Source: a virus (lineage: Duplodnaviria > Caudoviricetes). Taken from it: DNA of 64,000 bases. The translations under genes and the position numbers were made by a program. The notes under the pieces are model-generated. The model was not told where the DNA came from and ran no database searches. It saw only the letters and a list, made by a program, of their open reading frames with translations. Where the stretch lies: IMG/VR virus record IMGVR_UViG_3300025679_000005; one strand, given 5' to 3'. This document shows, piece by piece, positions 22,217 to 52,267 of the stretch (its first letter is position 1; every line of letters starts with the position of its first letter).

Positions 22217-22240
22217 ATTCTCCGGCCTGGTGTATATGAC

Positions 22241-22276
22241 CCAGCAACACCCGCTCAGGGGTTCCAATACTGTGAC
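22241..22276 (+). CRISPR. Solitary copy of the array-3 repeat behind a phage promoter
   Basis: CCAGCAACACCCGCTCAGGGGTTCCAATACTGTGAC, 33/36 identical to the array-3 repeat; GGTGTATATG at 22229. Confidence 0.85.
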
Positions 22277-33862: not shown

Positions 33863-33865
33863 AGG

Positions 33866-34423
33866 TCATTGAGCGGCCTCATCACATCCAGTAGTTACAC
33901 CGGACTTTGCGAGCGCCTCGCCAGTCCGTCGACAAATCTCCTTCGAGGCTCCAAAATCCCGATCGTAAGTGCGCCCACAATTAGGACAAGCAAGGATCAG
34001 ACCGTCAAGCTTTCCAGTGGGTTTTATGCAATGGGGGCACACCTGCGACGTTTTGCGAGCGGATACCGCAAAAACCTTGGCACCCGACCGCTCGCAGATC
34101 TGTTTGAGCAGGTAGGGGGCAGAAACATCTCGGTTCTGACGTTTACGCCTAGAACTCTCCGAGGCCGTATCAAGAGCACGCATCTGTGTGCTCTTGAGGT
34201 CCTCTAGGCCGATAGCCACATACATGGCCGCCAGTTTTTTGGCGGCCTTACTGAGAATGTCCAAACGAATATTCTCAATCCGTCGGCGAGCCTTGGCGAT
34301 TTGTTTTTCGGTCAGGTGCTCGTAAGCCACCCAAGAGGCTTCCTCTGTAGTGAGTACTCCCAGTTCGGCCAGATGCCTTCGGTATTGATGCCGATTTCTC
34401 ACAGGAAGGTTGGCGTTTTTCTT
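33866..34423 (-). pseudogene. 5'-truncated TnpB/Cas12-like effector
   Basis: Retains AIGLEDL (RuvC II), SARKTSQVCPHC...CPNCG...DRDFGAS (Zn + RuvC III); no RuvC I or recognition lobe; frame runs into a repeat. Confidence 0.8.
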
Positions 34424-34453
34424 GTCACAGTATTGGAACCCCTGAGCGGGTGT
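34424..34453 (-). CRISPR. Partial array-3 repeat at the truncation point
   Basis: GTCACAGTATTGGAACCCCTGAGCGGGTGT, same variant as the 22241 copy. Confidence 0.85.
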
Positions 34454-34498
34454 AGATCACATAATGTACGTTATCAAGCGTCCAGTCAACCCCATTGA

Positions 34499-37843: not shown

Positions 37844-38137
37844 TCAAATCCTGAGGTCAATCCCCGTCTTAGCGATCTTGGACGTGTACGTCTCGATCGT
37901 GGAAGTTGTCCAGATCCAGTCGACTACTCCTGCCAACGGGACCAGTAAGGCTAGCAACGGGGGTATGGCGGTCTTGGCCCAAGGCAAGTTCGCTGCCACG
38001 CTGGCTACGAAAAACAGGAATGCAAAAACCAAAGTAGCTATTCCGTAGTGCTTGGGCAAGTTCTTGCGACGAATCGTGTAGGCCGCCCGTTGCGTGTGCA
38101 TTTCAGAGATCTCAAGCCATTCGGGGAGTTTGGTCAT
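37844..38137 (-). CDS. Small membrane protein (two TM segments), start 4 nt after a CasPhi repeat
   Basis: MTKLPEW...; hydrophobic ATLVFAFLFFVASV and PPLLALLVPLAGVV. Confidence 0.65.
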   Translation of the reverse strand: MTKLPEWLEISEMHTQRAAYTIRRKNLPKHYGIATLVFAFLFFVASVAANLPWAKTAIPPLLALLVPLAGVVDWIWTTSTIETYTSKIAKTGIDLRI

Positions 38138-38141
38138 TTCA

Positions 38142-38161
38142 GTCTCAGCGTACTGAGCAAT
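38142..38161 (-). CRISPR. Minimal CasPhi repeat (20-nt hairpin core)
   Basis: ATTGCTCAGTACGCTGAGAC, identical to the 3' 20 nt of the CasPhi repeat. Confidence 0.85.
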
Positions 38162-38184
38162 AAAAAAGCTTTGTGGGCTCGCGG

Positions 38185-39024
38185 TCATTTCACGAGCCTG
38201 AGGAAGCGGCTGCTCCCGTCATTAGGCCTAGCGTGCAAATATCTGGAAGTTGTGGCGATGTTCCGGTGGCCAAGCGAATTTGAAATTAGGGTCAGCGGGC
38301 AACCTGCGTCAAGTGAATGGGACGCATGAGCGTGCCTCAAGAGATGGGGCCAAAGCTTCAACCCAGCCTTTTTGCCAGTGTCCGTGACAATCCGTCGGGC
38401 ATCCCTGGCCGTGAGCTGCTTCCCACGGTAGGATTTGAAGACAGGTGCCTCATCGACTTCGTTATTGCGACGAAGTGTCCTCAGCTCGTCAGCGATCGTG
38501 CTCGGAAGCATGAGGGTTCGAGTTCGGGTGCCCTTCCCCTGTAGGGTGACACGGAAGTCATTGAGGTCTTTGAACCTGATTCTGACGGCCTCGGCGATTC
38601 GTGCCCCGGAGGCGTATAGGAACCGGATGAGGATCTTGTCTCGACCTAGGTCGGCGATTCCAATGAGGCCTCCCACAGCATCTTCCTCCAAGATCTTCTC
38701 ATTCAAGTTATCCGGGATTTTCGGAGTCCTGAGGATTCGGCCGACGTTGAAGACGAGGTACCCCGTCCGGTATCCAAAACTGAGGAGGCTTTTGATCGTG
38801 CTGATCTTCCTAGCGATCGTGGCCGGCTTCCCGTTGAGGGTCTCTGCCCAGGCCATTACCTGGGCCACAGTCGCCCCCTGGAGGCCGTCGGGCAGCTCCA
38901 TGAGGAAAGCCATGGCCACTGGCTTGTAAGCGATTACGGACGATAGGGGACGGCCGCTGAGCCACAGCTTCATCAGCTGTTCATCGGAGGTGGCTCCGGA
39001 GTGGTTTTCCGGTAGATGGTTCAT
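38185..39024 (-). CDS. XerC/D-like tyrosine recombinase
   Basis: Catalytic R (GARIAE), K (GKG), HxxR (HLLRH), H (LGH), Y (TSRY); SAM-like N-domain. Confidence 0.93.
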   Translation of the reverse strand: MNHLPENHSGATSDEQLMKLWLSGRPLSSVIAYKPVAMAFLMELPDGLQGATVAQVMAWAETLNGKPATIARKISTIKSLLSFGYRTGYLVFNVGRILRTPKIPDNLNEKILEEDAVGGLIGIADLGRDKILIRFLYASGARIAEAVRIRFKDLNDFRVTLQGKGTRTRTLMLPSTIADELRTLRRNNEVDEAPVFKSYRGKQLTARDARRIVTDTGKKAGLKLWPHLLRHAHASHSLDAGCPLTLISNSLGHRNIATTSRYLHARPNDGSSRFLRLVK

Positions 39025-39030
39025 TGGACT

Positions 39031-39057
39031 GTCTCAGCGTACTGAGCAATCAAAAGG
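39031..39057 (-). CRISPR. Solitary CasPhi repeat (27 nt) 6 nt upstream of the recombinase ATG
   Basis: CCTTTTGATTGCTCAGTACGCTGAGAC then AGTCCA-ATG. Confidence 0.9.
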
Positions 39058-39327
39058 CTTAGGCTGGTTTACCCCCGGAACGGTGACTTCGATGGGGGTG
39101 ATGCCGTTGTGTGGGACAACGAGGCAGCTCCACGGGTAGGTCTCTTTGTCGACACCTAAGGCCGTAGTGACTTTCACGATCCACATGTCGAGAAGGTGGC
39201 GGGAAGCCAGACCGCAGATGACGCCTGTCCCAGAGACCGGACCCATGGTGAACATCACTGGTTGGCCGTCTACGTAACAGGGTTTGACTTTGCCTTGGAG
39301 GTCGGTTTGCAGTTCGAAGTTGTACAT
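39034..39327 (-). CDS. Hypothetical protein lying between two CasPhi repeats
   Basis: 97-aa ORF with SH3-like composition; stop codon lies inside the repeat. Confidence 0.6.
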   Translation of the reverse strand: MYNFELQTDLQGKVKPCYVDGQPVMFTMGPVSGTGVICGLASRHLLDMWIVKVTTALGVDKETYPWSCLVVPHNGITPIEVTVPGVNQPKPFDCSVR

Positions 39328-39377: not shown

Positions 39378-40148
39378 GTCTCAGCGTACTGAGCAATCAA
39401 AAGGCTTCGCAGGCTGGGTCTGTCGCGAGCTGGACCAATACGGTGACGTGCTTGTCTCAGCGAACTGAGCAATCAAAAGGTTTCGCAGGATCCAGAGCTA
39501 CCAGGCGCTACAACGGAAGTGGCATCAGTCTCAGCGTACTGAGCAATCAAAAGGTTTCGCAGGAGGCGGTAGTCCTTGATGCTATCGTCGGCAAAGTCTC
39601 GTCTCAGCGTACTGAGCAATCAAAAGGTTTCGCAGGGTCGGGGCGGCGGGGGCAGATTCATCAGACCAAGTACGTCTCAGCGTACTGAGCAATCAAAAGG
39701 TTTCGCAGGAGTGGCCCATAGACCTGGTTCCCTTGGGCGTCCCTCTTGTCTCAGCGTACTGAGCAATCAAAAGGTTTCGCAGGGCCAGGGGCCGGCGGGC
39801 CGTTGTACTGGCCCGGACGAGTCTCAGCGTACTGAGCAATCAAAAGGTTTCGCAGGTTCCTTAGTGGGACTCTTAGAGGATCCTATAAGTAAGAGTCTCA
39901 GCGTACTGAGCAATCAAAAGGTTTCGCAGGGTCGGGTGTTGGAGTCGATGAGGTTGGCTTAGCGTACGTCTCAGCGTACTGAGCAATCAAAAGGTTTCGC
40001 AGGCCCCGACTCCACGGGATCATGTTGGGGATCGATCCTGTCTCAGCGTACTGAGCAATCAAAAGGTTTCGCAGGGCGTCGTGTTCATCGATCACAACTA
40101 CAGGGATCCCCTGTCTCAGCGTACTGAGCAATCAAAAGGTTTCGCAGG
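39378..40148 (-). CRISPR. CasPhi array, 11 repeats and 10 spacers
   Basis: Repeat CCTGCGAAACCTTTTGATTGCTCAGTACGCTGAGAC; 3' end matches the CasPhi repeat family; directly downstream of casPhi. Confidence 0.98.
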
Positions 40149-40239
40149 TCGCACGTCAGAAACAGTGAATTTTCAAAGACCTACCGAATGCTTTGCGAGC
40201 GGTTCGGTAAATTAGAGATCAGCAGGGGGTATTACACCG

Positions 40240-42570
40240 TCATTCAGCGGCTTCAGCATCTTCTTCTGGCTTAAAAGCAGCTTTGCGAGCGCCTACGCTC
40301 TTTTTGGCATCACCGGACCGCTCGCTTTCTGGCTTAGGCATAGGCTTGCCGGTCAGAGCGACTCGTTCAATGTTGTCCGTCGCGATCTCAAGGTCAGCAT
40401 GAGCTACAAAGCCGCACTTCTGGCATGCGAACCGTTCTCCGTCCCGATTGGCCTTGTCACAGTGCCCACATTTGGTACAGGTGATGCTGGTCCGGTGGGG
40501 GGTTACTTCAATGGTTGGGACCCCCTTGTGGGCCCCCAATTCGGTCAAGGACTTGTGGAAGGCTTGCATGAACCAACGATTCTCCCTCTTCTTGATGAAG
40601 AAAGCGTCCCATCCGCCATCAGCCCATTTTCCGTTCCCATGCATCATCTTGATATTGAGGTCTTCGAAGGCCATAACGACGACCTCACATTGAGAGGATT
40701 TTGCTGCCTTGTGTCGCAATTGATTGAGAATGCGCTTCGTCAGTTCTTGTTTCCAGGTTGAGAGTCGGAGGTACTCGGGAGAAGTCCTCTGAAGGTCCCA
40801 TTGTGCCTCCCGATATGCTTCGGCAGCCTCCGGACTCACTTCTATTCGAACACCCTCAGTTCCCTTGAATTTGATGTCTCGTCGCAACATCTCGGGCCTA
40901 TTTTTGGGTTTGAGGGTAGCTACTTTCCGGTCGCCGCCCTTCTCAAGATAGGCCGTAGCAAGGAATTCTGTGTATGGAGTCATCTTGTCCCAAGCGATCA
41001 TCTCCGGATTGAGCCCTAGTGCGGCGCACACCCTAGCCTTACAGAGAGCTGGGGTGTCGTTTTTAGCCCTTAGGATCTCTGACTTATGCTCTGGAGATAG
41101 TCGCTCAACAGCCAAATTGGCCAACTTGTCCCGTAGACGATCACTGGCCACTCGATATCTAGCGATCTCTTTCCCATCGCTGCTGTCATTCGACAGTAGC
41201 TCTCGCAATAATGTCTCGTGGGATAGCTGGCCGTCGCTCAATTGGGTTACCCTAGAGACTTTGGCGGCAATAGGATTGGTTTGACCCAGGTCAATTGATA
41301 CTAGAACCACAGGCCCCGATTTTGTCAACTCGGACAGGATTTCAGGAGCGTTCTTTGTCTTCACCATTTTGGCAGAGCAAGCTTGACCCGCCTTGTAGAT
41401 AAAAGTGCAGACGCCCTGCCGCATGTCGATAGAGGGGTCCCCCGTGAACAGGCTTAGCAAGTCAGGGATCGTGGACTTTTCCTTCAGCAATTTCCGATAG
41501 CGAGCATTTCGCAGCAACCCTCGAATATCGATGATGACCCATTCGTCTTGGAAGCGCATCAATACAGGGATCGCACCTTTGAAGCGCCCCGATTGGATCT
41601 GATCTGTTCTCGAATTCTTCCGGTTTGGTGTTCCGGACCGTTTGGAGCACGTAGCCTTAGGCTTGTTAAGACTTGCCGAGTACCAATCTCGACGGCGCCT
41701 GTTCTTGCGACGATTGAGCAGAGGATGCTGCCACTCGGGCACATACCCCGGCTGTCCCTTTGGAATGGTCATGCGATCGTGAGGCAAGTAGTCCGTGAGG
41801 GCCTCAGCGGACTCTTTGGCAAGGCATCCGCTAGGTAACCCAATAAAGTCACTAGGGCAGGATTTGATCACTACTGCCTGATAGCCTGGAATCGTTTGGT
41901 TCACTCCCGGAGGATGAATCAAGTATCCTCGTTCATCATGGGCTTTCTCCTCCACGAAGGTAGCCTCTTCTCCTGCTTCCTTCCGGCGCTTCGTCTTCGA
42001 CAGATTCTTCTCGTTGCGGTTCTCAACCTTTTTGAGTACGCCCTCTCGAATGCTGATAGCCGATTTGATGAGGGCGTTCTGTGCCTGAGCGTGGAGGCTA
42101 GGGGCGTCCAGTCCCAACACTTCATAGAAGGCAGCTCGGGTTTCCTCATTGAGCTTGGATTTGCCATCAACTTCTAGGGAGGCTACCGCTTCGTTGAAGG
42201 CCGTCTCTGACAGACCATCTTGTTTGGGACGACCCTTGGTAGCGGGGATCCCGAAGATCTTCTCCTGGATTTGACGAGAAACTCGAACGAGGTCCCATTC
42301 GATAAAGGGCCTGCTTTGAGCAATTACGAAGGCTTTGGCGGGCGGTTTAACGTCCTTGAGCTTTGCCTGACCCTTGCCAGTCAGGTAGCTGATGACGGCT
42401 TCGGGTCCGCCATCTCTCAGCTTCTTGCCAGCAATCTTGTAATCCTGGGACTCAAATTTCAAGCCTGGGAAATGCGCCCGCAAAAGCAAAGACAATGGAG
42501 AAGGGGGTGTGGTTTTATTGCTCATGTGCTCTCTGGTCGAAACGGCCGTATTTGACATTTCTATTTGCAA
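40240..42570 (-). CDS. cas12j: CasPhi (Cas12j) type V effector; start probably ATG 42558 or the next Met
   Basis: HFPG, IDIRGLLRNARYR, FTGDP, VSIDLGQTNPI (RuvC I), AFEDLN (II), KKRENRWF, HRTSITCTKCGHC...CQKCG...ADLEIA (III): recognisable CasPhi signatures. Confidence 0.96.
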   Translation of the reverse strand: MQIEMSNTAVSTREHMSNKTTPPSPLSLLLRAHFPGLKFESQDYKIAGKKLRDGGPEAVISYLTGKGQAKLKDVKPPAKAFVIAQSRPFIEWDLVRVSRQIQEKIFGIPATKGRPKQDGLSETAFNEAVASLEVDGKSKLNEETRAAFYEVLGLDAPSLHAQAQNALIKSAISIREGVLKKVENRNEKNLSKTKRRKEAGEEATFVEEKAHDERGYLIHPPGVNQTIPGYQAVVIKSCPSDFIGLPSGCLAKESAEALTDYLPHDRMTIPKGQPGYVPEWQHPLLNRRKNRRRRDWYSASLNKPKATCSKRSGTPNRKNSRTDQIQSGRFKGAIPVLMRFQDEWVIIDIRGLLRNARYRKLLKEKSTIPDLLSLFTGDPSIDMRQGVCTFIYKAGQACSAKMVKTKNAPEILSELTKSGPVVLVSIDLGQTNPIAAKVSRVTQLSDGQLSHETLLRELLSNDSSDGKEIARYRVASDRLRDKLANLAVERLSPEHKSEILRAKNDTPALCKARVCAALGLNPEMIAWDKMTPYTEFLATAYLEKGGDRKVATLKPKNRPEMLRRDIKFKGTEGVRIEVSPEAAEAYREAQWDLQRTSPEYLRLSTWKQELTKRILNQLRHKAAKSSQCEVVVMAFEDLNIKMMHGNGKWADGGWDAFFIKKRENRWFMQAFHKSLTELGAHKGVPTIEVTPHRTSITCTKCGHCDKANRDGERFACQKCGFVAHADLEIATDNIERVALTGKPMPKPESERSGDAKKSVGARKAAFKPEEDAEAAE

Positions 42571-42604
42571 GTGGCTTAAATCGGTGTATCTACTTACACC
42601 GATT

Positions 42605-42666
42605 TCTCGATTGCTCAGTACGCTGAGACTGTGAGCCGCCCTTTTGATTGCTCAGTACGCTGAGAC
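42605..42666 (+). CRISPR. Two-repeat CasPhi mini-array divergent from casPhi, ~12-nt spacer
   Basis: TCTCG-ATTGCTCAGTACGCTGAGAC, TGTGAGCCGCCC, TTTTG-ATTGCTCAGTACGCTGAGAC. Confidence 0.88.
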
Positions 42667-42840
42667 AGCATTGGCAATGGCCTGAGCAACTCTGCGGATG
42701 TCTTCCCTGAGCTTGTCGGTAGGAGTTTCGTCGTAGACTCCTTCCCTGACCCATTTCACCTTTTCAGGCGGGATGTCGTCGAATTCAGGGAAGCAACGAA
42801 AGGTAGCTAGGCGGTGACGATAGCAGACAACAGCGTTCAT
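42652..42840 (-). CDS. Small hypothetical protein ending inside the mini-array repeat
   Basis: 62-aa ORF, ATGA-coupled to the upstream gene. Confidence 0.5.
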   Translation of the reverse strand: MNAVVCYRHRLATFRCFPEFDDIPPEKVKWVREGVYDETPTDKLREDIRRVAQAIANAVSAY

Positions 42841-43715
42841 TGTGCCGGCTGATAGACTGAGAAGTTTCCGCCGACGTACGACTCTTTCTTGTCGTCCAAA
42901 ATATCTGACAAGGACATGATGAAGTCGCCGTTCTTGGTCCGGGCGCCGTCATTGACGAAACCGCCTCGAATTCCTGAGGTGAACATCCACTGGTGTTCCT
43001 TTGGCACACTGTAGTTGATGTCATTGCGAATACCCCCACCCTGGCGAATACCCTCCGCTCGCTTCGAGCCGAAAATCAGGGTGTGGTCTCGCCGAACAAG
43101 CTGATCCATCCTCGGCGGGCTCCCATCGTGAGCGTCAACAGCGGGGGCGAACAAGGTGTTTTCGAAACCAGCTCGGGGCTTGTACCACCAGAAGATGGGC
43201 TCAGCCTCCCTGAGAGTGCTCATATCGAAGCAGCAGATGGCGATCGGCCATTCAGGGTAGAGCTTGGCCATTACCGTCAGGAACGGCATCCGGATGTTTG
43301 GGCGTTTACTCTCCGGCACCTCCTTGAGGGCCGAGTTCAACCCCGCGGCTGAAGATGCCAGGGCGATCGTGTAGGACCCCGACTCGATGATCTGATAACT
43401 CAAAGAATCAGAGTCATTCAGCATAACGCCCTTGATCATCCCAAGGGATCTTCTTGTTCTGGGCTTCAGCGCCTTCACAGCCTTGTGGTAATCCTTGAGG
43501 ATGCCTTTGAAGGCCGTGGCGTCGATCACGTTCTCAGGACCTAGCGGACCCAATGCCGGAATCGGCAGAATCATGGCGTTGGGTCCGTGGCCGAAGGAGG
43601 TCACGCTGTTCTGGTAGCCTAGAACGTGAACGAGGCCGTCCCCAGGTTTCTCGACCTCAGCCGAGTAGATGATTGTATCAGAGAGACTGACTCCGGCTTC
43701 GATGGTACAGCACAT
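42837..43715 (-). CDS. Hypothetical protein
   Basis: 292-aa ORF; promoter motif 11 nt before ATG. Confidence 0.75.
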   Translation of the reverse strand: MCCTIEAGVSLSDTIIYSAEVEKPGDGLVHVLGYQNSVTSFGHGPNAMILPIPALGPLGPENVIDATAFKGILKDYHKAVKALKPRTRRSLGMIKGVMLNDSDSLSYQIIESGSYTIALASSAAGLNSALKEVPESKRPNIRMPFLTVMAKLYPEWPIAICCFDMSTLREAEPIFWWYKPRAGFENTLFAPAVDAHDGSPPRMDQLVRRDHTLIFGSKRAEGIRQGGGIRNDINYSVPKEHQWMFTSGIRGGFVNDGARTKNGDFIMSLSDILDDKKESYVGGNFSVYQPAQ

Positions 43716-43736
43716 GGTGGAGCCTATACACCAGTT

Positions 43737-44513
43737 CTAAGCAATGTGCGAATGCGGATGGGCCTCGCATCGTTCACAAAGTACTATCGAGTCGGGCCAG
43801 CCTTCGAGCATGTATTCTCCAGCGGGTGTGCGTCCGCATCTGCCCTGCTCAGCGAGAAAGCACTCACATGTGAGATTCGGTGACTTGAAAGCACGGATGG
43901 ATACTACTCCCTGCTTGGCAACGGGAAAACAAATCTCACACGAAGCGTTTGGCCCGATCCCACCGTGGTCCGTGCAACGAATGGACATAGCCGTAATGTG
44001 ATCCTTGTGGGACACAGAGTCCTGCGCAAGGGACAGGGGGACCTTGGTGAGCATAATGTCCGCCCAGATAGAGGGCCAGTGATCCAACATCCCCTTGAGG
44101 CAGCGATCCATGTGCTCGATGATCGCTAACGGAGCCCCGTGGGTGTTCCTGGCATAGCTTAGCGACACGGGGCACTCAAGGTACACAAGCTCTGGGACGT
44201 GCCCAAATGCTCTGGCCACATTGATGTACGGGGCCAGGTCGTAGACCATGGCATTGGTGTTGTCGACGATGACCGTGACTTCTTTACCTAGTGGCCGTGG
44301 GTCTCCCATGTAAGGCGAAGCCGTCACCAACTTCACGAACTTGCGAAGACAAGCATGGTGGGCATTCGGGCGCTCTTCGATCTTGAACTCGTACCCGTTC
44401 GGACCTTCATGCCAGTGATCCGCAGAGCAGATCGAGACATCGCCCCAGGTGTTCTCCTTGATCCAGGTGCTTTTGCCGGCGCCCGGGAGGCCTATGAGGA
44501 TGATGACTCGCAT
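43737..44513 (-). CDS. P-loop kinase (AAA_33/polynucleotide kinase-like)
   Basis: GLPGAGKST Walker A, ICSADH, VIVDNTN, SYARNTHG. Confidence 0.85.
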   Translation of the reverse strand: MRVIILIGLPGAGKSTWIKENTWGDVSICSADHWHEGPNGYEFKIEERPNAHHACLRKFVKLVTASPYMGDPRPLGKEVTVIVDNTNAMVYDLAPYINVARAFGHVPELVYLECPVSLSYARNTHGAPLAIIEHMDRCLKGMLDHWPSIWADIMLTKVPLSLAQDSVSHKDHITAMSIRCTDHGGIGPNASCEICFPVAKQGVVSIRAFKSPNLTCECFLAEQGRCGRTPAGEYMLEGWPDSIVLCERCEAHPHSHIA

Positions 44514-44516
44514 GGA

Positions 44517-45116
44517 TCAGCTCTCCCAGGTGGGGGTCGACCAGTGTTCTTGCCAAACATGGACGACAGCAGGCTTTGCCTTCGGCTCGGGTCGGAAATA
44601 AGGCTTCCTGTGATTGGGGTGAGCGCCCATCTTCATCGCGATCTCAGAATCCAGCTCTAGGTTGGAGCCGTTGTACACAGGCTCAGCCGGCCTCTCAGCA
44701 TTGACTTGGGGCTCTGCTGGCTTCTCATAAATCTGCTCTGGCCACATGTCGGTCCATAAAATCTGCTCGGCCCACATATACCCAGGGGCGTTGGCCCTAC
44801 CTTCGCACTTCCACTTACCGGAGTAGGCGTTACAGGCACCTTTACGGACAAGCTCAGACATCGCGACGAAGATGCCCCCTAAGAAAGCCGCTCTTGTACC
44901 AACAGGGAGAGTTTCTGGAAGGATCTTGGGCAACCTGCGAGCCCTGATGCGTTTCCCCATTTCAATGATATCCACAGGGAGAACCGAGGCATGTGGAAAG
45001 CACTCATAGGAGATCACGGCTTCTTTCAGGTCAGACACCCCATATATTGGATCATCAGCCCACTCCAAGATAGCAGCCGTCGCTTCTTTAGCACCGCAGC
45101 ATTCGCACTTTGCCAT
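44517..45116 (-). CDS. Hypothetical protein with N-terminal CxxC
   Basis: GGTG-TAGGAT 10 nt before ATG. Confidence 0.65.
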   Translation of the reverse strand: MAKCECCGAKEATAAILEWADDPIYGVSDLKEAVISYECFPHASVLPVDIIEMGKRIRARRLPKILPETLPVGTRAAFLGGIFVAMSELVRKGACNAYSGKWKCEGRANAPGYMWAEQILWTDMWPEQIYEKPAEPQVNAERPAEPVYNGSNLELDSEIAMKMGAHPNHRKPYFRPEPKAKPAVVHVWQEHWSTPTWES

Positions 45117-45136
45117 GGATCGATCCTACACCGATT

Positions 45137-45397
45137 TCAATGGGGAAGCCCTGAGCCCAAAGTGACAACTCGGTCAATGCTCACGAACATCACCGAACGA
45201 TTGGCGGGGTAGGAGAAGTCGAAGCTATGACAACGCCCGCACTTTGGACAGGTATGCTGATAGATGTCGGCTATTACGTAGACCGAGTCCTGACCCTCGT
45301 CATTGAGGACTTCGCCGCAACCACATAGGAGAACGCACCTTCGCCTGGCCATAGCGGCCCTGGCTTTGAGCCAGTTACGTATTTTATAGATCATCAT
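45137..45397 (-). CDS. Small Zn-ribbon protein
   Basis: LCGCGE...TCPKCG; ATGA-coupled. Confidence 0.55.
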   Translation of the reverse strand: MMIYKIRNWLKARAAMARRRCVLLCGCGEVLNDEGQDSVYVIADIYQHTCPKCGRCHSFDFSYPANRSVMFVSIDRVVTLGSGLPH

Positions 45398-45765
45398 GGG
45401 ATTTCCTCTGTCGAGCTGAGGCGTTCCCACGAGGTGGGCACGACCTCGGCGGTAGTCCGGGGGATGTTCCCCAGAGCCCAATCACAAGCCACGCCAAGCA
45501 CTACCATTACTGAAAAGTAGCTGATTTTATGTTCTTCGAGGACGCTCATCACAGCCTTTTTGACCGCATTGACGTTGGTGTCTCCACCAACGGACTCGAC
45601 CAGGAAGCATACGCCCTCCCCCAAAGTGCCGTTGGTCTCGATCGTAAGCAGGCCGTCATTAGCCATGACCACTGGAGATACCCTGTAACCTTTGTGGACC
45701 ATACTCGCAATAATGGCGTCCGCAAAGGCAGAGGTGAGAATGGTGATGACGACGGTACAGACCAT
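45394..45765 (-). CDS. Hypothetical protein, paralog family with PTSWERL tag
   Basis: Similar to 45770 and 47931 ORFs. Confidence 0.7.
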   Translation of the reverse strand: MVCTVVITILTSAFADAIIASMVHKGYRVSPVVMANDGLLTIETNGTLGEGVCFLVESVGGDTNVNAVKKAVMSVLEEHKISYFSVMVVLGVACDWALGNIPRTTAEVVPTSWERLSSTEEIP

Positions 45766-45769
45766 GACC

Positions 45770-46135
45770 CTATTCCGACTGAGCTAGGCGTTGCCAAGCG
45801 GTGGGTCTGTCCCCTGTTTGGTCGACTACATGGCTCCCACAATGCCAGACACAATCCTTGTCGTCTAGGGACTCACAGACAAGTATCGAGTAGTATACCG
45901 TATGTAATTCCTGTAGTAACCCTCGAAGCTCCTCAGAAACAGCTTCTATGTCTAACTCTTCGTCGCCGTTGTCCATATGAACTGCTAGCGTTGCGCCTAC
46001 TCGGCCCTCCTCTACTTCAACGGCTCGATTGCTTATTGAGATAGGGGATACCGTCCAACCCGTGTTTAGGAATGCGGCGAGGAGGGCATCCGATTGCTGG
46101 GTGGACGGCAGAGTGATTAGTACGAAGTATCTCAC
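45770..46135 (-). CDS. Hypothetical protein, paralog family with PTAWQRL tag
   Basis: As above. Confidence 0.7.
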   Translation of the reverse strand: MRYFVLITLPSTQQSDALLAAFLNTGWTVSPISISNRAVEVEEGRVGATLAVHMDNGDEELDIEAVSEELRGLLQELHTVYYSILVCESLDDKDCVWHCGSHVVDQTGDRPTAWQRLAQSE

Positions 46136-46392
46136 GGAACGTTCTCGAAGGCCTCATTGACCATGGCCGCGTGGCGCTCGTCCTTGAGCGCTTGCTTGGC
46201 GTTCTCTCGGACCTTGGCCTGCTCAGCGACGATAGCATCAAATTCAGCCATCTCATCCTGAGCCTTCGTCCAAGCCTCTTGGGCAGCCTCCCAACGCTTC
46301 AACGTGTCCGCTGGGACATCGTACGAACCCTTTGGATCTACGGAGAAGTTGTAGTCGTAGGCAGTGTCTCGGTCCAGTTTGATCTTGGGCAT
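46132..46392 (-). CDS. Hypothetical protein
   Basis: GGTG-TAGGAT 10 nt before ATG. Confidence 0.65.
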   Translation of the reverse strand: MPKIKLDRDTAYDYNFSVDPKGSYDVPADTLKRWEAAQEAWTKAQDEMAEFDAIVAEQAKVRENAKQALKDERHAAMVNEAFENVP

Positions 46393-46434
46393 GGCCCGAT
46401 CCTACACCGGTTCGCTAGGCTCCAGCTTCTCCTC

Positions 46435-46499
46435 GTCTCAGCGTACTGAGCAATCGAGAGCCTCACTCTACACCGTCTCAGCGTACTGAGCAATCAGCA
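46435..46499 (-). CRISPR. Two-repeat CasPhi mini-array with a 15-nt spacer and own promoter
   Basis: TGCTG-ATTGCTCAGTACGCTGAGAC, GGTGTAGAGTGAGGC, TCTCG-ATTGCTCAGTACGCTGAGAC; TCGGTG-TACTAT immediately upstream. Confidence 0.9.
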
Positions 46500-46533
46500 A
46501 TCACCCATAGTACACCGATAATTTATCTCTTGG

Positions 46534-47088
46534 GTGACATCTCGACGTGATGCAGATATTCGTCCTAGATTGAAGGAATTGCTCAAAGCCACGTCGTTTT
46601 TGATTGACGAACTGGGGATAGGCCATGGCCGAGTCAGGATTGACGTAGCCGCCATCGACACCGACTTCCATGGGTTCGAGATCAAGGCCGAAGCCGATAC
46701 CTTGAAGAGGCTTCCCCGGCAAGTCAGGTACTACAGCAAGGTCTGCGACTTCGCCTCCCTAGTGGTGCCGGCCAAACACTTGGAGAAGGCCACCCCGTTG
46801 ATTCCGGCCTGGTGGGGACTGTACGACGCTGAGACCTTGGCTGTCTTGAGAATGCCACAGAGGAACCCTACGTTGACCCCTAGAGCGATTGCCGAGGTCT
46901 TGTGGAAGGATGAGTCCTTGGCCTTCCTCGCCTCAGCTAAAGCCGGTAAGGGGATGTCCTCTCAGAGAGTGGCCAAGGTCTGGGACCGTGTGGCGAGAAC
47001 CTTTCCCTTGGACGAGATCAGAGCCGAGGTTCGGAGACGGTTAGTAGCCCGTCGGAATGAAGACGGAACCTACAAGCTGAGAGCCTAG
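46534..47088 (+). CDS. sce7726-family PD-(D/E)xK-like protein
   Basis: RVRIDVAAI...FHGFEIKAEADTLKRLPRQVRYYSKVCD family pattern. Confidence 0.8.
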   Translation: MTSRRDADIRPRLKELLKATSFLIDELGIGHGRVRIDVAAIDTDFHGFEIKAEADTLKRLPRQVRYYSKVCDFASLVVPAKHLEKATPLIPAWWGLYDAETLAVLRMPQRNPTLTPRAIAEVLWKDESLAFLASAKAGKGMSSQRVAKVWDRVARTFPLDEIRAEVRRRLVARRNEDGTYKLRA

Positions 47089-47591
47089 ACCTTCTTGGGG
47101 AAGGTCGCCCTTAAAGAGGCAGCCAAGTCATCATAATTGTAGTTGGTTGCTACCTGCTCTGAAGGTTCAGGCCAAGGCTCGACCTCCCACCCACCTAGCT
47201 CACTATACTTCGCGGAGTCGTACTTCACGGCTTCGTCGAAGGCAGCCCTATCAGCGATGTTGACACTCCTGTGACCTGGAGGGTTCAGCACACGGCCGAC
47301 AATGTAGCCGTACTCCGGCTCGACTTCAACATCGACTGGCACGGCCATCATCGGGTTGCTCAGGTCCCAACGCTTGATTGTCGTGGGGCCTAGGGCAACT
47401 TTCTCGAACTCTTCTACGGGAGTGATTACTCGCTCCGCATACCTGGTCTCAACGAAATACCGCTGAACCTTCTTCGGGACTTCGAGGATCTGCTTGGGGA
47501 GGGCGATGACCCTCTCTATTTTGGGTGCACCCCAAGTGAGGAGTCCGGCGAAGGTCGCTGTGAGTGCTTGGAGGAAGGTACGGCGTCGCAT
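47085..47591 (-). CDS. Hypothetical protein with Tat-like signal
   Basis: MRRRTFLQALTATFAGLL. Confidence 0.6.
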   Translation of the reverse strand: MRRRTFLQALTATFAGLLTWGAPKIERVIALPKQILEVPKKVQRYFVETRYAERVITPVEEFEKVALGPTTIKRWDLSNPMMAVPVDVEVEPEYGYIVGRVLNPPGHRSVNIADRAAFDEAVKYDSAKYSELGGWEVEPWPEPSEQVATNYNYDDLAASLRATFPKKV

Positions 47592-47613
47592 AGTCGCCGA
47601 TGTTAGCACACTT

Positions 47614-47934
47614 TCAGGAGCCGAAGCCATCGATCTCGCACTTCCTACAGCCTGCGTTCGTCCAGTTGAAGTGCAGAAATCCTAGTGAGAAGCCGCAGTG
47701 GGAACCGTCATAGTAGATGTGGTAGGATCCCCATCCCCAATCGGTGCTGAGGTATACGGATCGGTAGTCGTAGCCTAGATGCCATTCCGAGGCCTCGTCC
47801 TTGACTTGCACGTTCAGCTCAAAGCCGAAGCCCGTCCAGTGTATACGGTTGACCACGGCTTCTAGCACCCAACGGTACTTGGTGACCTGAGGAACTCTTG
47901 CCAGGATACTCTCTCTGAACTTGAAAATGATCAC
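47614..47934 (-). CDS. Trp/Gly-rich hypothetical protein
   Basis: GTG start overlapping upstream TGA. Confidence 0.55.
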   Translation of the reverse strand: MIIFKFRESILARVPQVTKYRWVLEAVVNRIHWTGFGFELNVQVKDEASEWHLGYDYRSVYLSTDWGWGSYHIYYDGSHCGFSLGFLHFNWTNAGCRKCEIDGFGS

Positions 47935-48341
47935 AGCTCTGGATTCTCCAGGCGTTGCCAAGCGGTGGGTCTGTCCCCTTCCTTTTCTGGGAGAGCCTTG
48001 GACAGAGGGACATTGCCGCAGACCCAACCAGCCCCACCAGCGGGGCCTATGAACAAGGAGAAGTAACCGATTTCAGCCTCATTAAGCAGAATCCTGACTC
48101 TGTCTCGTATCGGACCCGTCTCGGTGATGTCCTTGGCCTCGACTTCAAATACTGAAATCCCTCCAATGAACTCCTCGTTAGCTTCTACAAGATGGGAACC
48201 GCATCTTCGAACAGCCCACCCTTCGGATATCAGCAGAGAAGGCAGCTTTGAAGCCGATTCCGGGATCAAGAACGTGATGACGACGTAGGCTTTCACTTGT
48301 GATGCTCGATCCATTTGAAGGACACTTGAAAGTTGTCCCAA
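47931..48341 (-). CDS. Hypothetical protein, paralog family with PTAWQRL tag
   Basis: 28 nt identical to the 45770 gene 3' end. Confidence 0.65.
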   Translation of the reverse strand: MGQLSSVLQMDRASQVKAYVVITFLIPESASKLPSLLISEGWAVRRCGSHLVEANEEFIGGISVFEVEAKDITETGPIRDRVRILLNEAEIGYFSLFIGPAGGAGWVCGNVPLSKALPEKEGDRPTAWQRLENPEL

Positions 48342-48706
48342 TAGCCCACGGAAGCGACCCTCCAGCCAGGCGAGTTGGAACCGTCATGGTCCGGCTGCTC
48401 AGGACGTTGTTGAACCGGCAATTGCCGTAGCCAGTTCTCGGTCAGTTGGATAACCCCGATCACGTCCAAGGGAAATGGCAATAGCGTGAAGGTGTTCAGG
48501 CTGTCTTCGTAACCTTGGGAGAAGGTCAGGACCGACCCCTCTGTTTTGACGTGAGAAACGTGAATGCACCTGGCCATGAGCATGGCGATAGCTGCCTGGA
48601 GATGAGCGATACTTCGACCGCAGACCACGAACTCCAAGCCACCGTGGATGGGGTTGTTGTCTCGATGGGCCAGAATCTCCAGAGCTTCTTGGGGTAGAGT
48701 CTTCAT
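48293..48706 (-). CDS. Hypothetical protein
   Basis: Promoter motif 12 nt before ATG. Confidence 0.65.
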   Translation of the reverse strand: MKTLPQEALEILAHRDNNPIHGGLEFVVCGRSIAHLQAAIAMLMARCIHVSHVKTEGSVLTFSQGYEDSLNTFTLLPFPLDVIGVIQLTENWLRQLPVQQRPEQPDHDGSNSPGWRVASVGYWDNFQVSFKWIEHHK

Positions 48707-48744
48707 GCTCTAGGGCTTTACACCGGATCGGTGTACCTACCAAG

Positions 48745-49008
48745 GTGGAATTAAAATCCGTCGAAGACCGGGGAGATTCTAGGTACCGTCTTACCATCGA
48801 CGATATCGTGTTTGACGTGGTTTATACGTTGAATGGGGTGATTGAAGGGATTTCCGGATCCTCGGAGTTCTTCACCAAGCTGGACTCCGAGGACTTGGCT
48901 GAGGCCCCAAAGTCGAGTGGGAGACTACGTACCAGACCAACGGCACTCGCCATTGGCGGGGCATCCACGAGTGCTGCAAGGCTAAGGTCCTTCAACGGAA
49001 CTCTGTGA
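48745..49008 (+). CDS. Hypothetical protein
   Basis: Divergent GGTGTA motif 9 nt before GTG. Confidence 0.55.
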   Translation: MELKSVEDRGDSRYRLTIDDIVFDVVYTLNGVIEGISGSSEFFTKLDSEDLAEAPKSSGRLRTRPTALAIGGASTSAARLRSFNGTL

Positions 49009-49319
49009 AGCCGGTGAATGAGCTGGAAGAGATGGTCACAGAATTAGAAGTCCGGGTCAACGAGCAGAACTTAGTAATTCAGGCGTTTCAAGCCAAGGTA
49101 GCTAAGGCTGAGAGCATCCTCAAACTGGCCTTGGATTCGTACTACGAATCCGATTGGACCGACCTAGCCTACGATGTACTGGGTCAAAAGCGTCGGAAGT
49201 CAGTAGCCGAGATAGAGATCGAGAACGTTGCCTTGAAGGCTGAGGTCACACGCCTAAAAGGACTCGATGGCTTGCCTGATCTAGCCTACGTCCTCACCGA
49301 TGACGAGTGCACCCTCTGA
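49005..49319 (+). CDS. Coiled-coil hypothetical protein
   Basis: GTGA-coupled ORF. Confidence 0.55.
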   Translation: MKPVNELEEMVTELEVRVNEQNLVIQAFQAKVAKAESILKLALDSYYESDWTDLAYDVLGQKRRKSVAEIEIENVALKAEVTRLKGLDGLPDLAYVLTDDECTL

Positions 49320-50054
49320 GAGGTCCATCCCGCCGGCTGCAATGATTGCCCGCCTGGAGGGACGGAGGGCGTCATCAAAGGGCTTCTCTGGCTTGATCTT
49401 GGAAAAGCCAGCCAGCTCTCTCTGAAAAAATGACCCTGGTTCTTCGATGGTTCGGCCAGTTTCGCTCCGAATGTAATCAAGTGTCATCCTGTATTCATCA
49501 GGAAGTCTCTCAGAGAACCCCTGAAGCATCGCAGCTGCACTGGCCATGGTCATTCCACCACGGCGGCCGACACGGTAGCCCACACGACGGTCCTCAGTGG
49601 GTTCGTGTGTATCCCCGTGCATGAAGTCTCCGCCAAGGTGGAATTCACCCATAATTTGTTGCTCGTAAAGGGATCTAGGCTCAGCAGGCCTCTCTGGCAT
49701 GTACACAGTAGCCCAAGAATCCAGCCCTGGGTCTATGCCCACGTTTATCGTCCCTACAGAGGCCGCATCGGGGTCAGGCGGAGTCGTCGTCACCAAGCCA
49801 CTGGGAAACTGCCAGACAACCTGAGAAGTGTGCCTGAGGATGTCCTGAACAGCGTCGACACTGATCCGTCTCTCGTCGTGAACGAGGTAGGGCTCTATGC
49901 GGATCGGTACCTCGATAGCTCTCTGGATAGCCGTGTGTGCAGCGGTCCCTACTGCTAAATTGGCCCTGGCCCTGGCCTCGATCCCACTGAAGTCAGTGTT
50001 GAGAAAGATTGGGCGATCAGGGGGTGGCAACGAATCGCTTTCGGTAAGCCTCAC
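49281..50054 (-). CDS. Hypothetical protein
   Basis: 257-aa ORF. Confidence 0.55.
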   Translation of the reverse strand: MRLTESDSLPPPDRPIFLNTDFSGIEARARANLAVGTAAHTAIQRAIEVPIRIEPYLVHDERRISVDAVQDILRHTSQVVWQFPSGLVTTTPPDPDAASVGTINVGIDPGLDSWATVYMPERPAEPRSLYEQQIMGEFHLGGDFMHGDTHEPTEDRRVGYRVGRRGGMTMASAAAMLQGFSERLPDEYRMTLDYIRSETGRTIEEPGSFFQRELAGFSKIKPEKPFDDALRPSRRAIIAAGGMDLSEGALVIGEDVG

Positions 50055-50400
50055 CTAGGGCGACCCATTTGGGAAAGCGGCCCCTTGCTTGAAAGACGGA
50101 CAATTCGTCGAATTTGTACACGCCTTCGAAGCCGATGATGAAGGCACAGGCTTCAGCTTCTTCGCAGTTTAGGAGGTCTGCCGCCTCTGGGGGCGTTGGA
50201 TAGTAGTTGGCCGTTCGACCTGAGAGCATGCTTTCAACTGCCCCAAGGGGACAGCACGTGTGCCCCTTCTTTTTGAAGATAGCGCCGATGGCGTCCTGGA
50301 CCCCCATCTTCTGGACGTTGATTGCGTAAGTCACCGAATCCGCGATCTTGGAGGCCGCTCGGCGGTAGCGTTGTTCAGGGGTCTCAATTGTCATGTTCAT
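50017..50400 (-). CDS. Hypothetical protein, paralog of 53650-53967
   Basis: CCPLGAV...EAEACAFIIGFEG...LGEAYRKRF. Confidence 0.7.
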   Translation of the reverse strand: MNMTIETPEQRYRRAASKIADSVTYAINVQKMGVQDAIGAIFKKKGHTCCPLGAVESMLSGRTANYYPTPPEAADLLNCEEAEACAFIIGFEGVYKFDELSVFQARGRFPKWVALGEAYRKRFVATP

Positions 50401-50825
50401 TGTCCAGGGTTAGAGGCCACTGGCTTCGACTTGTAGGGGTTTGCGATACCGGACGTGTCTTCCTCTAGTTCGATGTGATCAGGCGTCACAGCGTGGCTAG
50501 TGGGGGTAACCACTGGTTTTACACCAGCGACAGGTCGTTGCTGAACCACCACCGGCTTGACGCCCGCGTCAAGGAGAGTCTCGACGGCTACGACCTTAGG
50601 GGCGTCATTGACTTGAGCCGCCTGCCAGCGCTTCACCACTGCCATCGCCTCGGCATCAACCGTCGGTACCGGCATTACAATGACAGTGGACGAGGCCGTT
50701 GGCGCCGTTACGGCTACAGGTTTCGGCTGGCTAGAGCTGCCGAACATGTAGCCACCCACGAAAATGGCGATGGCGAACACGAAGGTGAGAACGATATAGG
50801 GGGCGTCTTGGCGAGTCATGATCAA
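50397..50825 (-). CDS. Membrane-anchored Pro/Thr/Val-rich protein (target of a self spacer)
   Basis: N-terminal TM helix IVLTFVFAIAIFVGG; low-complexity stalk. Confidence 0.7.
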   Translation of the reverse strand: MIMTRQDAPYIVLTFVFAIAIFVGGYMFGSSSQPKPVAVTAPTASSTVIVMPVPTVDAEAMAVVKRWQAAQVNDAPKVVAVETLLDAGVKPVVVQQRPVAGVKPVVTPTSHAVTPDHIELEEDTSGIANPYKSKPVASNPGQ

Positions 50826-50874
50826 TAGAACGGATCCATAACCCAGAAGTTAAGGGCTACCTGGTTTCCGGCCC

Positions 50875-51351
50875 GTGACCACTTGAAAGGGTTTCGTCTC
50901 CCTCTCTGACCTCAGCGCCCTCCCACGAGTCACGTTCCGCGTGGAGTGACCACTTGAAAGGGTTTCGTCTCCCTCTCTGACCAAAGCTAAGTCCACCAAG
51001 GACCCCAAGAACATGTTCGTGACCACTTGAAAGGGTTTCGTCTCCCTCTCTGACGAGCGAATGCGTCCCCCTGCCTCTCGTGAGCAATTCACGTGACCAC
51101 TTGAAAGGGTTTCGTCTCCCTCTCTGACTCTCTTAGGGATTTGATCCCTGATTCGCGATTTTGCGTGACCACTTGAAAGGGTTTCGTCTCCCTCTCTGAC
51201 CTCGGCATCAACCGTCGGTACCGGCATTACAATGACAGTAGTGACCACTTGAAAGGGTTTCGTCTCCCTCTCTGACACCAAGGTTTCGGTTCTCAGCTAC
51301 CCACCTGGAGCCCTCGTGACCACTTGAAAGGGTTTCGTCTCCCTCTCTGAC
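50875..51351 (-). CRISPR. Orphan CRISPR array 4, 7 repeats and 6 spacers
   Basis: Repeat GTCAGAGAGGGAGACGAAACCCTTTCAAGTGGTCAC (minus); spacers 35-40 nt; GAGAGGG/CCCUUUC stem (G-U wobble) and promoter at 51467 favour minus orientation; no adjacent cas. Confidence 0.95.
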
Positions 51352-51460
51352 GCGGTCCGTCAGGTTAGCGGCAATGAGGGTGTGGGAGGCTACGTAGTAT
51401 ACAGCCCCGTTGGTGGCTTTGACTTCGAAGGCTCTGAGGGCGGGGACGGTCGGCATGGTC

Positions 51461-52267
51461 TCAGTCTACACCAAAAACCTGGTAGTTCAGGTAGAACCCC
51501 TCGTAGGTGTAGAACTTCAGCAACCGCTCGACACGGATCGTCCGGTCATTGTCCGTGAGTACGTAGCAATCGTCTTCGTGGACTGCCACGATGACTACGG
51601 CACTGCTCCGACGCCTGTCCTTGGTCCGCCAGCGCTGGCCCTTCGCTGGCCCTGGGATCTGACCGCCAATAGGAGCGGATATGAAAATGATCTCGGGATC
51701 ACAATCGACTTTTGGTTCAGGCGGCTTGGGGTCCGGAACGATCCTTGATCCCGAGGTCGGTTCAGATCCCCCAGCACTCTTAGGGTATGCCTCATGGTAC
51801 AGTTCACCTAGGCCGATCGTCAAACGATCCATCAGGTGAGAAGCTTTGAGTTTCGCGCTATCTACGAGGATTTGCAGTATCGCGCTATCTACGAGGATTT
51901 GCAGTATCATACGTGCTCCAACGGTCAATTTCTGATGGGTCTTAAGGGTCGGCCAACGTCTTTCGACGCAGTACCGGCAGAGGCAGCAGCTGCCGTCGCA
52001 TTCGACCTTCCCACAAGTCTCACAGGGGTCAGGCGGGATCGGACAGTCTTCGCAAAAGACAATGCAGCCAGCCAATGTCGAGGCTGTTCTTGATGCCCAA
52101 GCATTCGGGACAGGATTCGTTTTCGTTGTCGAAGGTGTATAGGCCGCCGTCACAGCGATAAACGCCGTCTGGGAGGGGCACAGGCTCGGTGTAACCCCAT
52201 CCGACGTAGTGAGCAGCCCCAGTGCACCGAAGGGTAACGTAGGGCTGGGAGCTGTAGTCACAGCCAT
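51461..52267 (-). CDS. Hypothetical protein (frame and start uncertain)
   Basis: ORF track; overlapped by an alternative ORF 52029-52289; contains a 27-nt tandem duplication. Confidence 0.45.
   Translation of the reverse strand: MAVTTAPSPTLPFGALGLLTTSDGVTPSLCPSQTAFIAVTAAYTPSTTKTNPVPNAWASRTASTLAGCIVFCEDCPIPPDPCETCGKVECDGSCCLCRYCVERRWPTLKTHQKLTVGARMILQILVDSAILQILVDSAKLKASHLMDRLTIGLGELYHEAYPKSAGGSEPTSGSRIVPDPKPPEPKVDCDPEIIFISAPIGGQIPGPAKGQRWRTKDRRRSSAVVIVAVHEDDCYVLTDNDRTIRVERLLKFYTYEGFYLNYQVFGVD
51854..51907. repeat. 27-nt tandem duplication
   Basis: CGCGCTATCTACGAGGATTTGCAGTAT x2, in frame. Confidence 0.9.

Follow-up and report, generated by a model that had tools for sequence, protein, structure and literature searches.

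CasPhi (Cas12j) has been known so far as a hypercompact phage nuclease directed against competitors and as a genome editor. The locus described here raises the question of what a phage that encodes such a nuclease might do with a very small additional guide unit, placed outside its main CRISPR array and carrying a 15-nucleotide (nt) spacer that starts with a promoter-like motif of the phage itself. This unit, referred to as mini-array B, occupies the 141-nt gap between two divergent genes in the 64-kb stretch presented above (the window; Duplodnaviria, Caudoviricetes, IMG/VR record IMGVR_UViG_3300025679_000005), which is part of a 464-kb contig of a huge phage from a peat metagenome. The preferred answer, held tentatively, is that mini-array B is a separately promoted regulatory RNA gene resembling a CRISPR RNA (crRNA), by means of which CasPhi would be parked on promoters of the GGTGTAGAG type. 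That the locus yields CasPhi-loaded RNAs at all is considered likely. Gene switches of this crRNA-like kind are known from bacteria and are not described for CasPhi phages in the literature searched, in which no mention of Cas12j or CasPhi in the context of crRNA-like regulators was found.

The anatomy of mini-array B was confirmed as first annotated: behind a GGTGTA promoter-like motif (whole unit 46435-46518(-)), two truncated CasPhi repeats flank the 15-nt spacer and share identical 21-nt cores, which equal the 3' 21 nt of the 36-nt main-array repeat CCTGCGAAACCTTTTGATTGCTCAGTACGCTGAGAC at 21/21 positions. Copies of this core with at most one mismatch number 17 in the window and none in shuffles. 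The 25-nt CasPhi handle proposed by the initial annotation agrees with the array repeat over these 21 nt, whereas its four 5' bases differ, reading TGCT in unit 1 and TCTC in unit 2 versus TTTT in the main array. The bases contacted by Cas12j3 (U-18, G-17, A-2 and C-1) are retained in the unit 1 core, and the Cas12j3 handle is nearly the same as that of mini-array B. A further small unit, mini-array A, adjoins the casPhi promoter back-to-back; its first unit (42605-42629(+)) has the same 25-nt TCTC form as unit 2 of mini-array B, and in the two mini-arrays all four cores are perfect, yet the 5' 15 nt of the repeat are replaced. Folding of the mini-array B transcript gave only two hairpins, able to pair with each other, and neither Rfam matches nor tRNAs were found.

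Mini-array B lies 3.9 kb upstream of casPhi, close to the 4 kb first noted and with eight called genes in between, and casPhi is intact. Its product matches CasPhi-2 (7LYS, E 2e-135) and CasPhi-3 (7ODF, 3e-113), all three acidic RuvC motifs (D/E/D) align and the catalytic motifs are preserved. The observed layout and the agreement with an independent Logan assembly of the same sample, which covers 40230-50677 with one difference, indicate that mini-array B is real. Among sequencing runs, DNA of the locus is contained only in the source peat metagenome and in one other, low-depth peat run, with no variant at the locus in either, and no RNA run containing it was found. A CasPhi protein pattern search of IMG/VR and a megablast against GenBank phages gave no match, the 21-nt core matched GTDB genomes only once, by chance, in a Desulfobulbus regulator gene, and few loci of IMG/VR and the JGI metagenomes were matched by the core. 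The closest relative, locus L002, encodes a CasPhi that is 58% identical to that of the window.

The motif with which the spacer begins, GGTGTA, occurs 52 times in the window versus 31.7 times in shuffles. In support of the annotated link to many phage genes, 24 copies stand 8-14 nt ahead of an ATG when 2.9 are expected (shuffle maximum 9), most often at a distance of 9-11 nt. The motif also precedes all five CRISPR-type RNA loci of the window (the main array, the second-family array, orphan array C and mini-arrays A and B) together with two solitary repeats of the second family. It is read here as a promoter giving near-leaderless transcripts rather than as a ribosome-binding site, since these non-coding loci are preceded at the same distance as start codons. 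A ribosome-binding site was rejected because the motif stands ahead of these seven non-coding repeat loci, and the 9-11-nt gap would moreover be too long for GGUG to pair with the 16S tail. One GGTGTA (40233-40238) stands at the casPhi stop codon, ahead of the main array; the leader of the L002 array has the motif in the homologous position, and the CasPhi phages L018 and L026 use it too. A search for sigma-70 promoters at mini-array B found none. The spacer motif (P2) fits the consensus, with C before GGTGTA and GA after it, and among the promoters of this clade the variant GGTGTAGAG is frequent.

Promoter motif and handle stand at a characteristic distance. The gap between GGTGTA and the 25-nt handle is 11 nt in unit 1, where a 7-nt GGGTGAT separates TCGGTGTACTAT from the handle, and 9 nt in unit 2; both values fall within the modal distance of the motif to ATG, which agrees with the annotated placement of a putative promoter at the handle. 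The spacer, likewise as annotated, starts exactly with the motif. Neither GGTGTA nor its complement is present in any of the 79 canonical spacers examined in 7 related arrays, so that this guide (B1) is not a random protospacer.

Table 1. Positions of mini-array B, its neighbours and other repeat loci in the window (P1 to P3, promoter-like motifs; aa, amino acids)
Feature	Position	Strand	Description
P1	46507-46518	(-)	TCGGTGTACTAT; candidate driver of mini-array B
Unit 1 handle	46475-46499	(-)	TGCT + 21-nt core GATTGCTCAGTACGCTGAGAC; core identical to the 3' end of the array repeat
Spacer, guide B1	46460-46474	(-)	15 nt, GGTGTAGAGTGAGGC; doubles as complete promoter-like motif P2 (TAGAGT)
Unit 2 handle	46435-46459	(-)	TCTC + 21-nt core GATTGCTCAGTACGCTGAGAC; 25/25 match to first unit of mini-array A
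Candidate guide B2	46418-46434	(-)	GAGGAGAAGCTGGAGCC, 3' of unit 2, followed by TAGCGAAC and continuing into P3; whole stretch between unit 2 and P3 reads GAGGAGAAGCTGGAGCCTAGCGAAC
P3	46399-46409	(-)	CGGTGTAGGAT; then CGGGCC and, 6 nt from P3, ATG at 46392
Downstream gene	46132-46392	(-)	86 aa
Divergent neighbour gene	46534-47088	(+)	184 aa; phrog_984; precomputed Pfam match P4 cII-like
Mini-array A	42580-42666	(+)	two truncated repeats around a 10-12-nt spacer, TGTGAGCCGC(CC)
casPhi (Cas12j)	40240-42570	(-)	761-776 aa; likely ATG at 42525
Main CasPhi array	39378-40148	(-)	11 repeats of 36 nt, spacers of 36-40 nt; directly downstream of casPhi
Second-family array	33534-33870		preceded by GGTGTA
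Orphan array C	50874-51357 (also 50649-50687)	(-)	7 repeats of GTCAGAGAGGGAGACGAAACCCTTTCAAGTGGTCAC, read on the minus strand; no cas gene nearby

The arrangement of a promoter directly facing a handle is found four times in the window and again in the related loci L014, L018, L023 and L026, whose nucleases, where known, are just 36-58% identical. The promoter of mini-array A is palindromic and bidirectional (ATCGGTGTA..TACACCGAT), with one arm directed toward casPhi and the other toward the repeats; the same palindromic promoter, with one arm facing a solitary repeat, occurs in L014 (~800-845) and L018 (~7430-7481), while in L023 and L026 GGTGTA stands 11-13 nt ahead of a repeat. In the window, solitary repeats of the second family follow GGTGTA at 22229(+) and 32978(-). 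When the 9-11-nt rule is applied, the predicted start falls within ~2 nt of the first handle base (21-25 nt) in five of eight promoter-driven units. By this account, pre-sized CasPhi guide genes with their own putative promoters have arisen as a design more than once, and this speaks against a relic of chance. The conservation that was asked for in other CasPhi phages holds for the design and not for the exact unit, which was found in no other genome. More generally, 8 of the 10 CasPhi loci examined have a repeat unit outside the array within 10 kb, and many solitary CasPhi repeats lie at promoters or 3-6 nt ahead of start codons, a situation of which no description was found in the literature searched.

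The second repeat family mentioned above (CCAACAACACCCGCTCAGGGGTTCCAGTACTGAGAC) shares its stem and 3' end with the CasPhi repeat but has a loop of greater length. Five copies make up an array behind an open reading frame of 154 aa that corresponds to a RuvC/TNB fragment (33534-34455); three more stand alone, and GGTGTA immediately precedes two of these (22229-22276 and 32932-32983).

The TCTC 25-mer common to both mini-arrays, the perfect handles, the intact casPhi and the retained contact bases would all speak for a regulatory RNA gene, whose transcription, CasPhi loading, target choice and outcome may be pictured as follows. Judging from the geometry, transcription from P1 would start at the 25-nt handle or within a few bases of it, which would make 5' processing unnecessary. 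In line with the known self-processing of CasPhi, the nuclease would bind both hairpin handles and cut 5' of unit 2, releasing a ~40-nt RNA composed of the 25-nt handle and the 15-nt guide. The guide GGTGTAGAGTGAGGC would steer CasPhi to promoters of the GGTGTAGAG subclass flanked by a T-rich protospacer-adjacent motif (PAM), predicted to have the form TTT-GGTGTAGA(G/C)NGAG. Trinucleotides of the TBN type, which the initial annotation had pointed out before many of these promoters, are indeed enriched, preceding 10 of the 24 start-codon sites versus a background of 19%. At pairings of 8-13 nt RuvC would not be licensed and CasPhi would act as a roadblock on the promoter, whereas cutting would be the probable result at a site matched 15/15. 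Among the sites seen, the strongest candidates are CRISPR-leader promoters, namely the putative one of orphan array C and that of the CasPhi array leader of the closest relative, and as an outcome the production of guide RNAs, own or a rival's, would be tuned or silenced.

The length of the guide sets limits to this mechanism. Mature CasPhi crRNAs reportedly combine a repeat portion of ~25 nt with a spacer of 14-20 nt. In Cas12j3 the RNA-DNA hybrid stops at 17 base pairs (bp), RuvC becomes active upon formation of a 12-15-bp duplex, and the cuts in the non-target strand fall at positions 13-15 (PMC8298400). By these lengths a 15-nt guide is near full length, so that a perfect match would probably lead to cutting and not to repression. 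Only partial matches, or the 10-12-nt guide of mini-array A, are expected to give binding alone; in the type V-A regulators CreR and Cracr, partial pairing over at least 9 PAM-proximal bases results in binding without cutting. The original proposal that a short guide makes CasPhi bind without cutting is accordingly weakened as stated and tenable for partial matches, and the regulatory idea as such is not weakened.

Besides the guide length, the target searches weigh against the parking of CasPhi on promoters. An exact second copy of GGTGTAGAGTGAGGC was found neither in the window, which represents 64 kb of the 464-kb phage contig, nor in ~250 kb of related loci. The seven exact matches in IMG/VR fall into five independent contexts, all of them unrelated coding sequence and compatible with chance, and within these sequences the search for a PAM-flanked target suggested at the outset gave no exact site in a meaningful context. 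The best near match in the window, TTT-GGTGTAGAcTGAGaC (51458-51475(-), 13/15), is the promoter-like motif ~100 nt upstream of orphan array C, and a second one, TTT-GGTGTAGAGaGAGGg at 12291 of L002 (13/15, 9-nt seed), is located directly after casPhi and upstream of the array. Agreement in 7 or more of the 9 bases behind GGTGTA is seen in ~0.7% of site pairs, so that ~0.6 such matches are expected among 82 sites, and neither match is significant alone; that both stand before CRISPR arrays and behind TTT is suggestive, and was noticed post hoc. As GGTGTAGAG is a common promoter variant, the likeness of these sites to B1 could reflect promoter class and not pairing of guide and target. The casPhi promoter (AAATC-GGTGTAAGTAGAT) and the adjacent P3 match B1 poorly and lack T at -3; with a seed of 6 nt and an ATC flank, casPhi is to be dropped as a target of this guide. 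Lastly, mini-array B was not seen at the same place in other genomes, and L002, the only closer relative, is without it in the 22 kb examined.

The promoters adjacent to the mini-array, P1 and P3, match B1 over 6-7 nt with no T-rich flank, and no target was found for guide B2 (GAGGAGAAGCTGGAGCC). The relaxed pattern TTGGTGTAGAGNGAGG gave 73 matches, mostly due to chance, the most promoter-like of which comes from a provirus that lacks CasPhi (L033). For the spacer of mini-array A, TGTGAGCCGC(CC), the searches yielded no target, nor was a match to it found in the casPhi promoter; the RNA 3' of unit 2 of mini-array A would be antisense to the gene upstream of casPhi, at the 3' end of that gene. 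Seeds of 10-11 nt occur genome-wide in numbers of the order expected (~38), that is, as noise, and for this reason an 11-nt match of main-array spacer 2 to the promoter at 45127 was given no weight.

One spacer of orphan array C (51201-51240) matches over 39 nt a gene of the phage itself, located 550 bp away, and the repeat of this array has no match in IMG/VR or Rfam. The leaders of CasPhi arrays contain a conserved element, CTCGCAAA followed after 8-10 nt by TAGGTCTTTGAAAT (with variants), 25-45 nt ahead of the first repeat. It was found in the window (40150-40200), in L002 (12320-12370) and in L012, L016, L017, L018, L019 and L026, with nucleases just 35-58% identical and GC contents of 42-63%; in L026 its second part is the GGTGTA motif. 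This element may be an array promoter or a leader signal.

A broader version of the preferred reading, which is considered doubtful, holds that CasPhi huge phages run a dispersed RNA-guided layer, in which B1 would be aimed at CRISPR-leader promoters as an anti-CRISPR between phages. Mini-arrays A and B and the solitary repeats at promoters and start codons would then make the nuclease a programmable repressor, silencing the orphan array of the phage or, by means of the handle they have in common, the CasPhi arrays that rival phages carry. In support of the preferred reading itself, the unit at 890-961 of L023, a promoter-driven solitary repeat on a 149-kb IMG/VR contig, is the case to compare. 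The first 11 nt of its guide (ATTAGATGATT) recur 58 nt upstream, TTC-flanked and overlapping the start codon of a divergent gene, and the record contains this 11-mer nowhere else; no casPhi was found within this 31%-complete fragment. It appears to be the clearest CreA/CreR-like case of a CasPhi-type repeat. Similarly, the guide of the solitary repeat at 38142 of the window repeats a TCG-flanked 10-mer located 51 nt upstream. Local matches of such lengths are expected ~0.02-0.08 times over the ~35 units tested. Both can also be read as target-site duplications around an inserted cassette of 41-47 nt, and with 10 and 11 bp the two are as long as the 9-11-nt overhang left by Cas12j3 cleavage.

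The repeat at 38142 belongs to a pair of solitary CasPhi repeats (38132-38192 and 39031-39065, (-)) that flank a tyrosine recombinase gene (38185-39024). It lies within a 41-nt insert bounded by the 10-bp direct repeat TGAAATGACC (38192-38183 and 38141-38132), which duplicates the stop codon of the recombinase together with the start of the next gene, the upstream copy being TCG-flanked (TBN-type). The arrangement may be either an insertion scar or a CreR-like self-match.

Among the alternatives, the one that survives best, Model B of the initial annotation and unlikely as it is, takes mini-array B as two tandem promoter-handle units, the spacer serving chiefly as an internal promoter (P2) from which a second pre-sized RNA begins at unit 2. 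In that case either GAGGAGAAGCTGGAGCC... would be the working guide or each unit would act by way of its handle alone, and the likeness of other sites to B1 would be a matter of promoter class. The fit of P2 to the GGTGTA consensus, its distance of 9 nt from the 25-nt handle (within the modal 9-11 nt) and the frequency of GGTGTAGAG as a promoter variant agree with this, as do the single promoter-to-repeat units that lack a second repeat, found in the window (22229 and 32978) as well as in L014, L023 and L026. Such an account leaves unit 1 and its own promoter without a purpose, however, and known crRNA-like regulators have the order repeat, short spacer, repeat, with the second repeat setting the 3' end. 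Moreover, mini-array A has the same layout with no promoter motif inside its spacer, and guide B2 is without a target and runs into P3 and the open reading frame with no terminator.

Less probable still is a compact cutting guide against a rival phage that carries an exact TBN-GGTGTAGAGTGAGGC site, for example in a leader or early promoter. The activity of Cas12j3 at 12-15 bp and its pairing over at most 17 bp, which place 15 nt near the full mature guide, would suit this role, and 15 nt plus a PAM would by arithmetic be specific enough for a target space of a few Mb. Relatives share the motif and an identical handle, the leader promoter of L002 reaches 13/15 with a TTT flank, and spacers of 16-18 nt exist in the array tails of L016 and L018. 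Against it stand the lack of an exact match in promoter context in IMG/VR or the related loci, where the seven IMG/VR matches lie in unrelated coding sequence, the avoidance of the motif by canonical spacers, and the fact that in the DNA compared no cross-targeting was seen between the spacers of the window and those of L002 and other relatives.

A role at the RNA level with no targeting of DNA appears improbable. The handles would titrate or sense CasPhi, or mark read-through transcripts from P1 for processing and in this way control the downstream operon (46392 onwards). No terminator was found after unit 2, so that transcripts from P1 would enter this operon; solitary repeats inside operons, 3-6 nt before start codons, suggest control of mRNA by CasPhi binding; and Racrs provide a known case of repeat mimics by which Cas proteins are sequestered (PMC10651486). 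On the other hand, P3, at 6 nt from the ATG, would free the operon from P1, a decoy needs neither a second unit nor a spacer that is precisely a promoter motif, and it would poison the phage's own nuclease. Domain searches on the neighbouring genes gave nothing informative, and no toxin is evident among them.

Solitary repeats were observed in several other settings. They stand 3-6 nt ahead of a start codon at 39031 and 38142 of the window, L018 7466, L023 932 and L028 8832, and 15 nt ahead of one at L021 2753; CasPhi bound to such a handle would cover the start codon, which hints at translational control or mRNA processing. Near casPhi, a solitary repeat lies 55 nt upstream of the start codon in the same orientation (L027 9930), a degenerate repeat-like hairpin ~50 nt before the gene (L012 566-600), a solitary repeat between casPhi and the array (L012 3259) and an inverted copy ~550 nt upstream (L026 9467(-)). 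No promoter targets were found within 800 nt for the casPhi-upstream units of L027, L012 and L026. On three metagenomic contigs, CasPhi-type repeats are located in or beside tRNA gene clusters (L011 1163, L013 1624, L027 13716), in whose transcript processing CasPhi might take part. In L028, a CasPhi locus of 43% GC, repeat-like 25-mers occur within the casPhi coding sequence, and the array tail has a repeat pair without spacer (92-116, 3556-3604).

The weakest alternative sees in mini-array B a leftover of recombination between dispersed repeats that has no function and stays identical to the array through gene conversion. It might draw on the lack of adaptation genes near the array in CasPhi phages, on irregular array tails (short spacers, truncated repeats, the spacerless double repeat of L028), on the window repeat that a 10-bp direct repeat encloses in the manner of an insertion scar and on the occurrence of the exact unit in one genome only, and is quite improbable in view of four perfect cores amid replaced flanks, truncation at the boundary of the mature handle, a promoter motif at the right distance and the recurrence of the design in at least four other phage lineages with CasPhi 36-58% identical where known.

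Comparison with known crRNA-like systems helps to place the preferred reading, that of a regulatory RNA gene. CreR mini-CRISPRs are described from types I-B, I-E and V-A (bioRxiv 10.1101/2023.03.10.532045), and repeat-like regulatory elements were surveyed by Shmakov et al. 2023 (PMC10120712). Mini-array B shares with CreR a repeat-like handle identical to that of the cognate crRNA, a short pseudo-spacer, a second repeat and its own putative promoter; a single-protein type V effector would be the partner, partial pairing would mean binding without cutting, and mini-array A even lies directly upstream of the cas gene. It differs in belonging to type V-J and being encoded by a phage rather than a cell, in repeats that are truncated where those of CreR are degenerate, and in a guide that contains the general promoter motif of the phage. 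Neither mini-array has a PAM-flanked match to the casPhi promoter, and unit B is 3.9 kb from casPhi, away from the cas promoter. Mini-array B was not filed as CreR because it lacks these two defining features, a location next to the cas promoter and partial, PAM-flanked pairing with that promoter; by analogy it most likely works like CreR, on other promoters.

CreA of the CreTA system (PMC9458426) is likewise a crRNA-like RNA in a divergent intergenic region beside a promoter that it possibly controls, and L023 shows just this arrangement, its PAM-flanked match of 11 nt lying across the divergent gene's start, while unit B differs in that its adjacent P1 and P3 match over just 6-7 nt with no T-rich flank and no evident toxin. 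Viral Cracrs are, like mini-array B, virus-encoded compact crRNA-like RNAs with a short guide; sometimes stacked in arrays, they reprogram a Cas12 effector onto promoters and silence CRISPR functions, in a study that covers types I and V-A and leaves V-J unmentioned (bioRxiv 10.1101/2024.10.29.618823). Cracrs, however, hijack host Cas proteins and target host cas or toxin promoters, whereas this phage encodes the cognate nuclease and the candidate targets of mini-array B are phage-type promoters.

Repeat hairpins dispersed outside arrays, numerous in this phage and its relatives, recall Racrs (PMC10651486), which are guide-free decoys of a host system. A decoy of this type was rejected here: the cognate casPhi is the phage's own and is present, and mini-array B has a defined short spacer and a second repeat. 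Viral mini-CRISPR arrays of one or two spacers are said to serve in conflicts between viruses, to have full repeats and full-length spacers with exact matches in related viruses, and to use host Cas proteins. A small array in a viral genome, with targets expected in related viruses, is what mini-array B has in common with them; such an assignment was discarded as well, given a spacer of 15 nt versus 36-40 nt in the main array, repeats cut at the handle and no exact match in relatives.

The initial interpretation is thus partly supported and the observation on which it was based confirmed. If the proposed function is correct, the locus would provide a minimal, processing-free CasPhi guide transcription unit of 40 nt, useful for compact multiplexed editing or repression. 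In the biology of the phages, it would mean that some huge-phage promoters are under RNA-guided control, and that CRISPR-derived regulation, as represented by CreR, CreA and Cracr, extends to type V-J and to virus-encoded systems.

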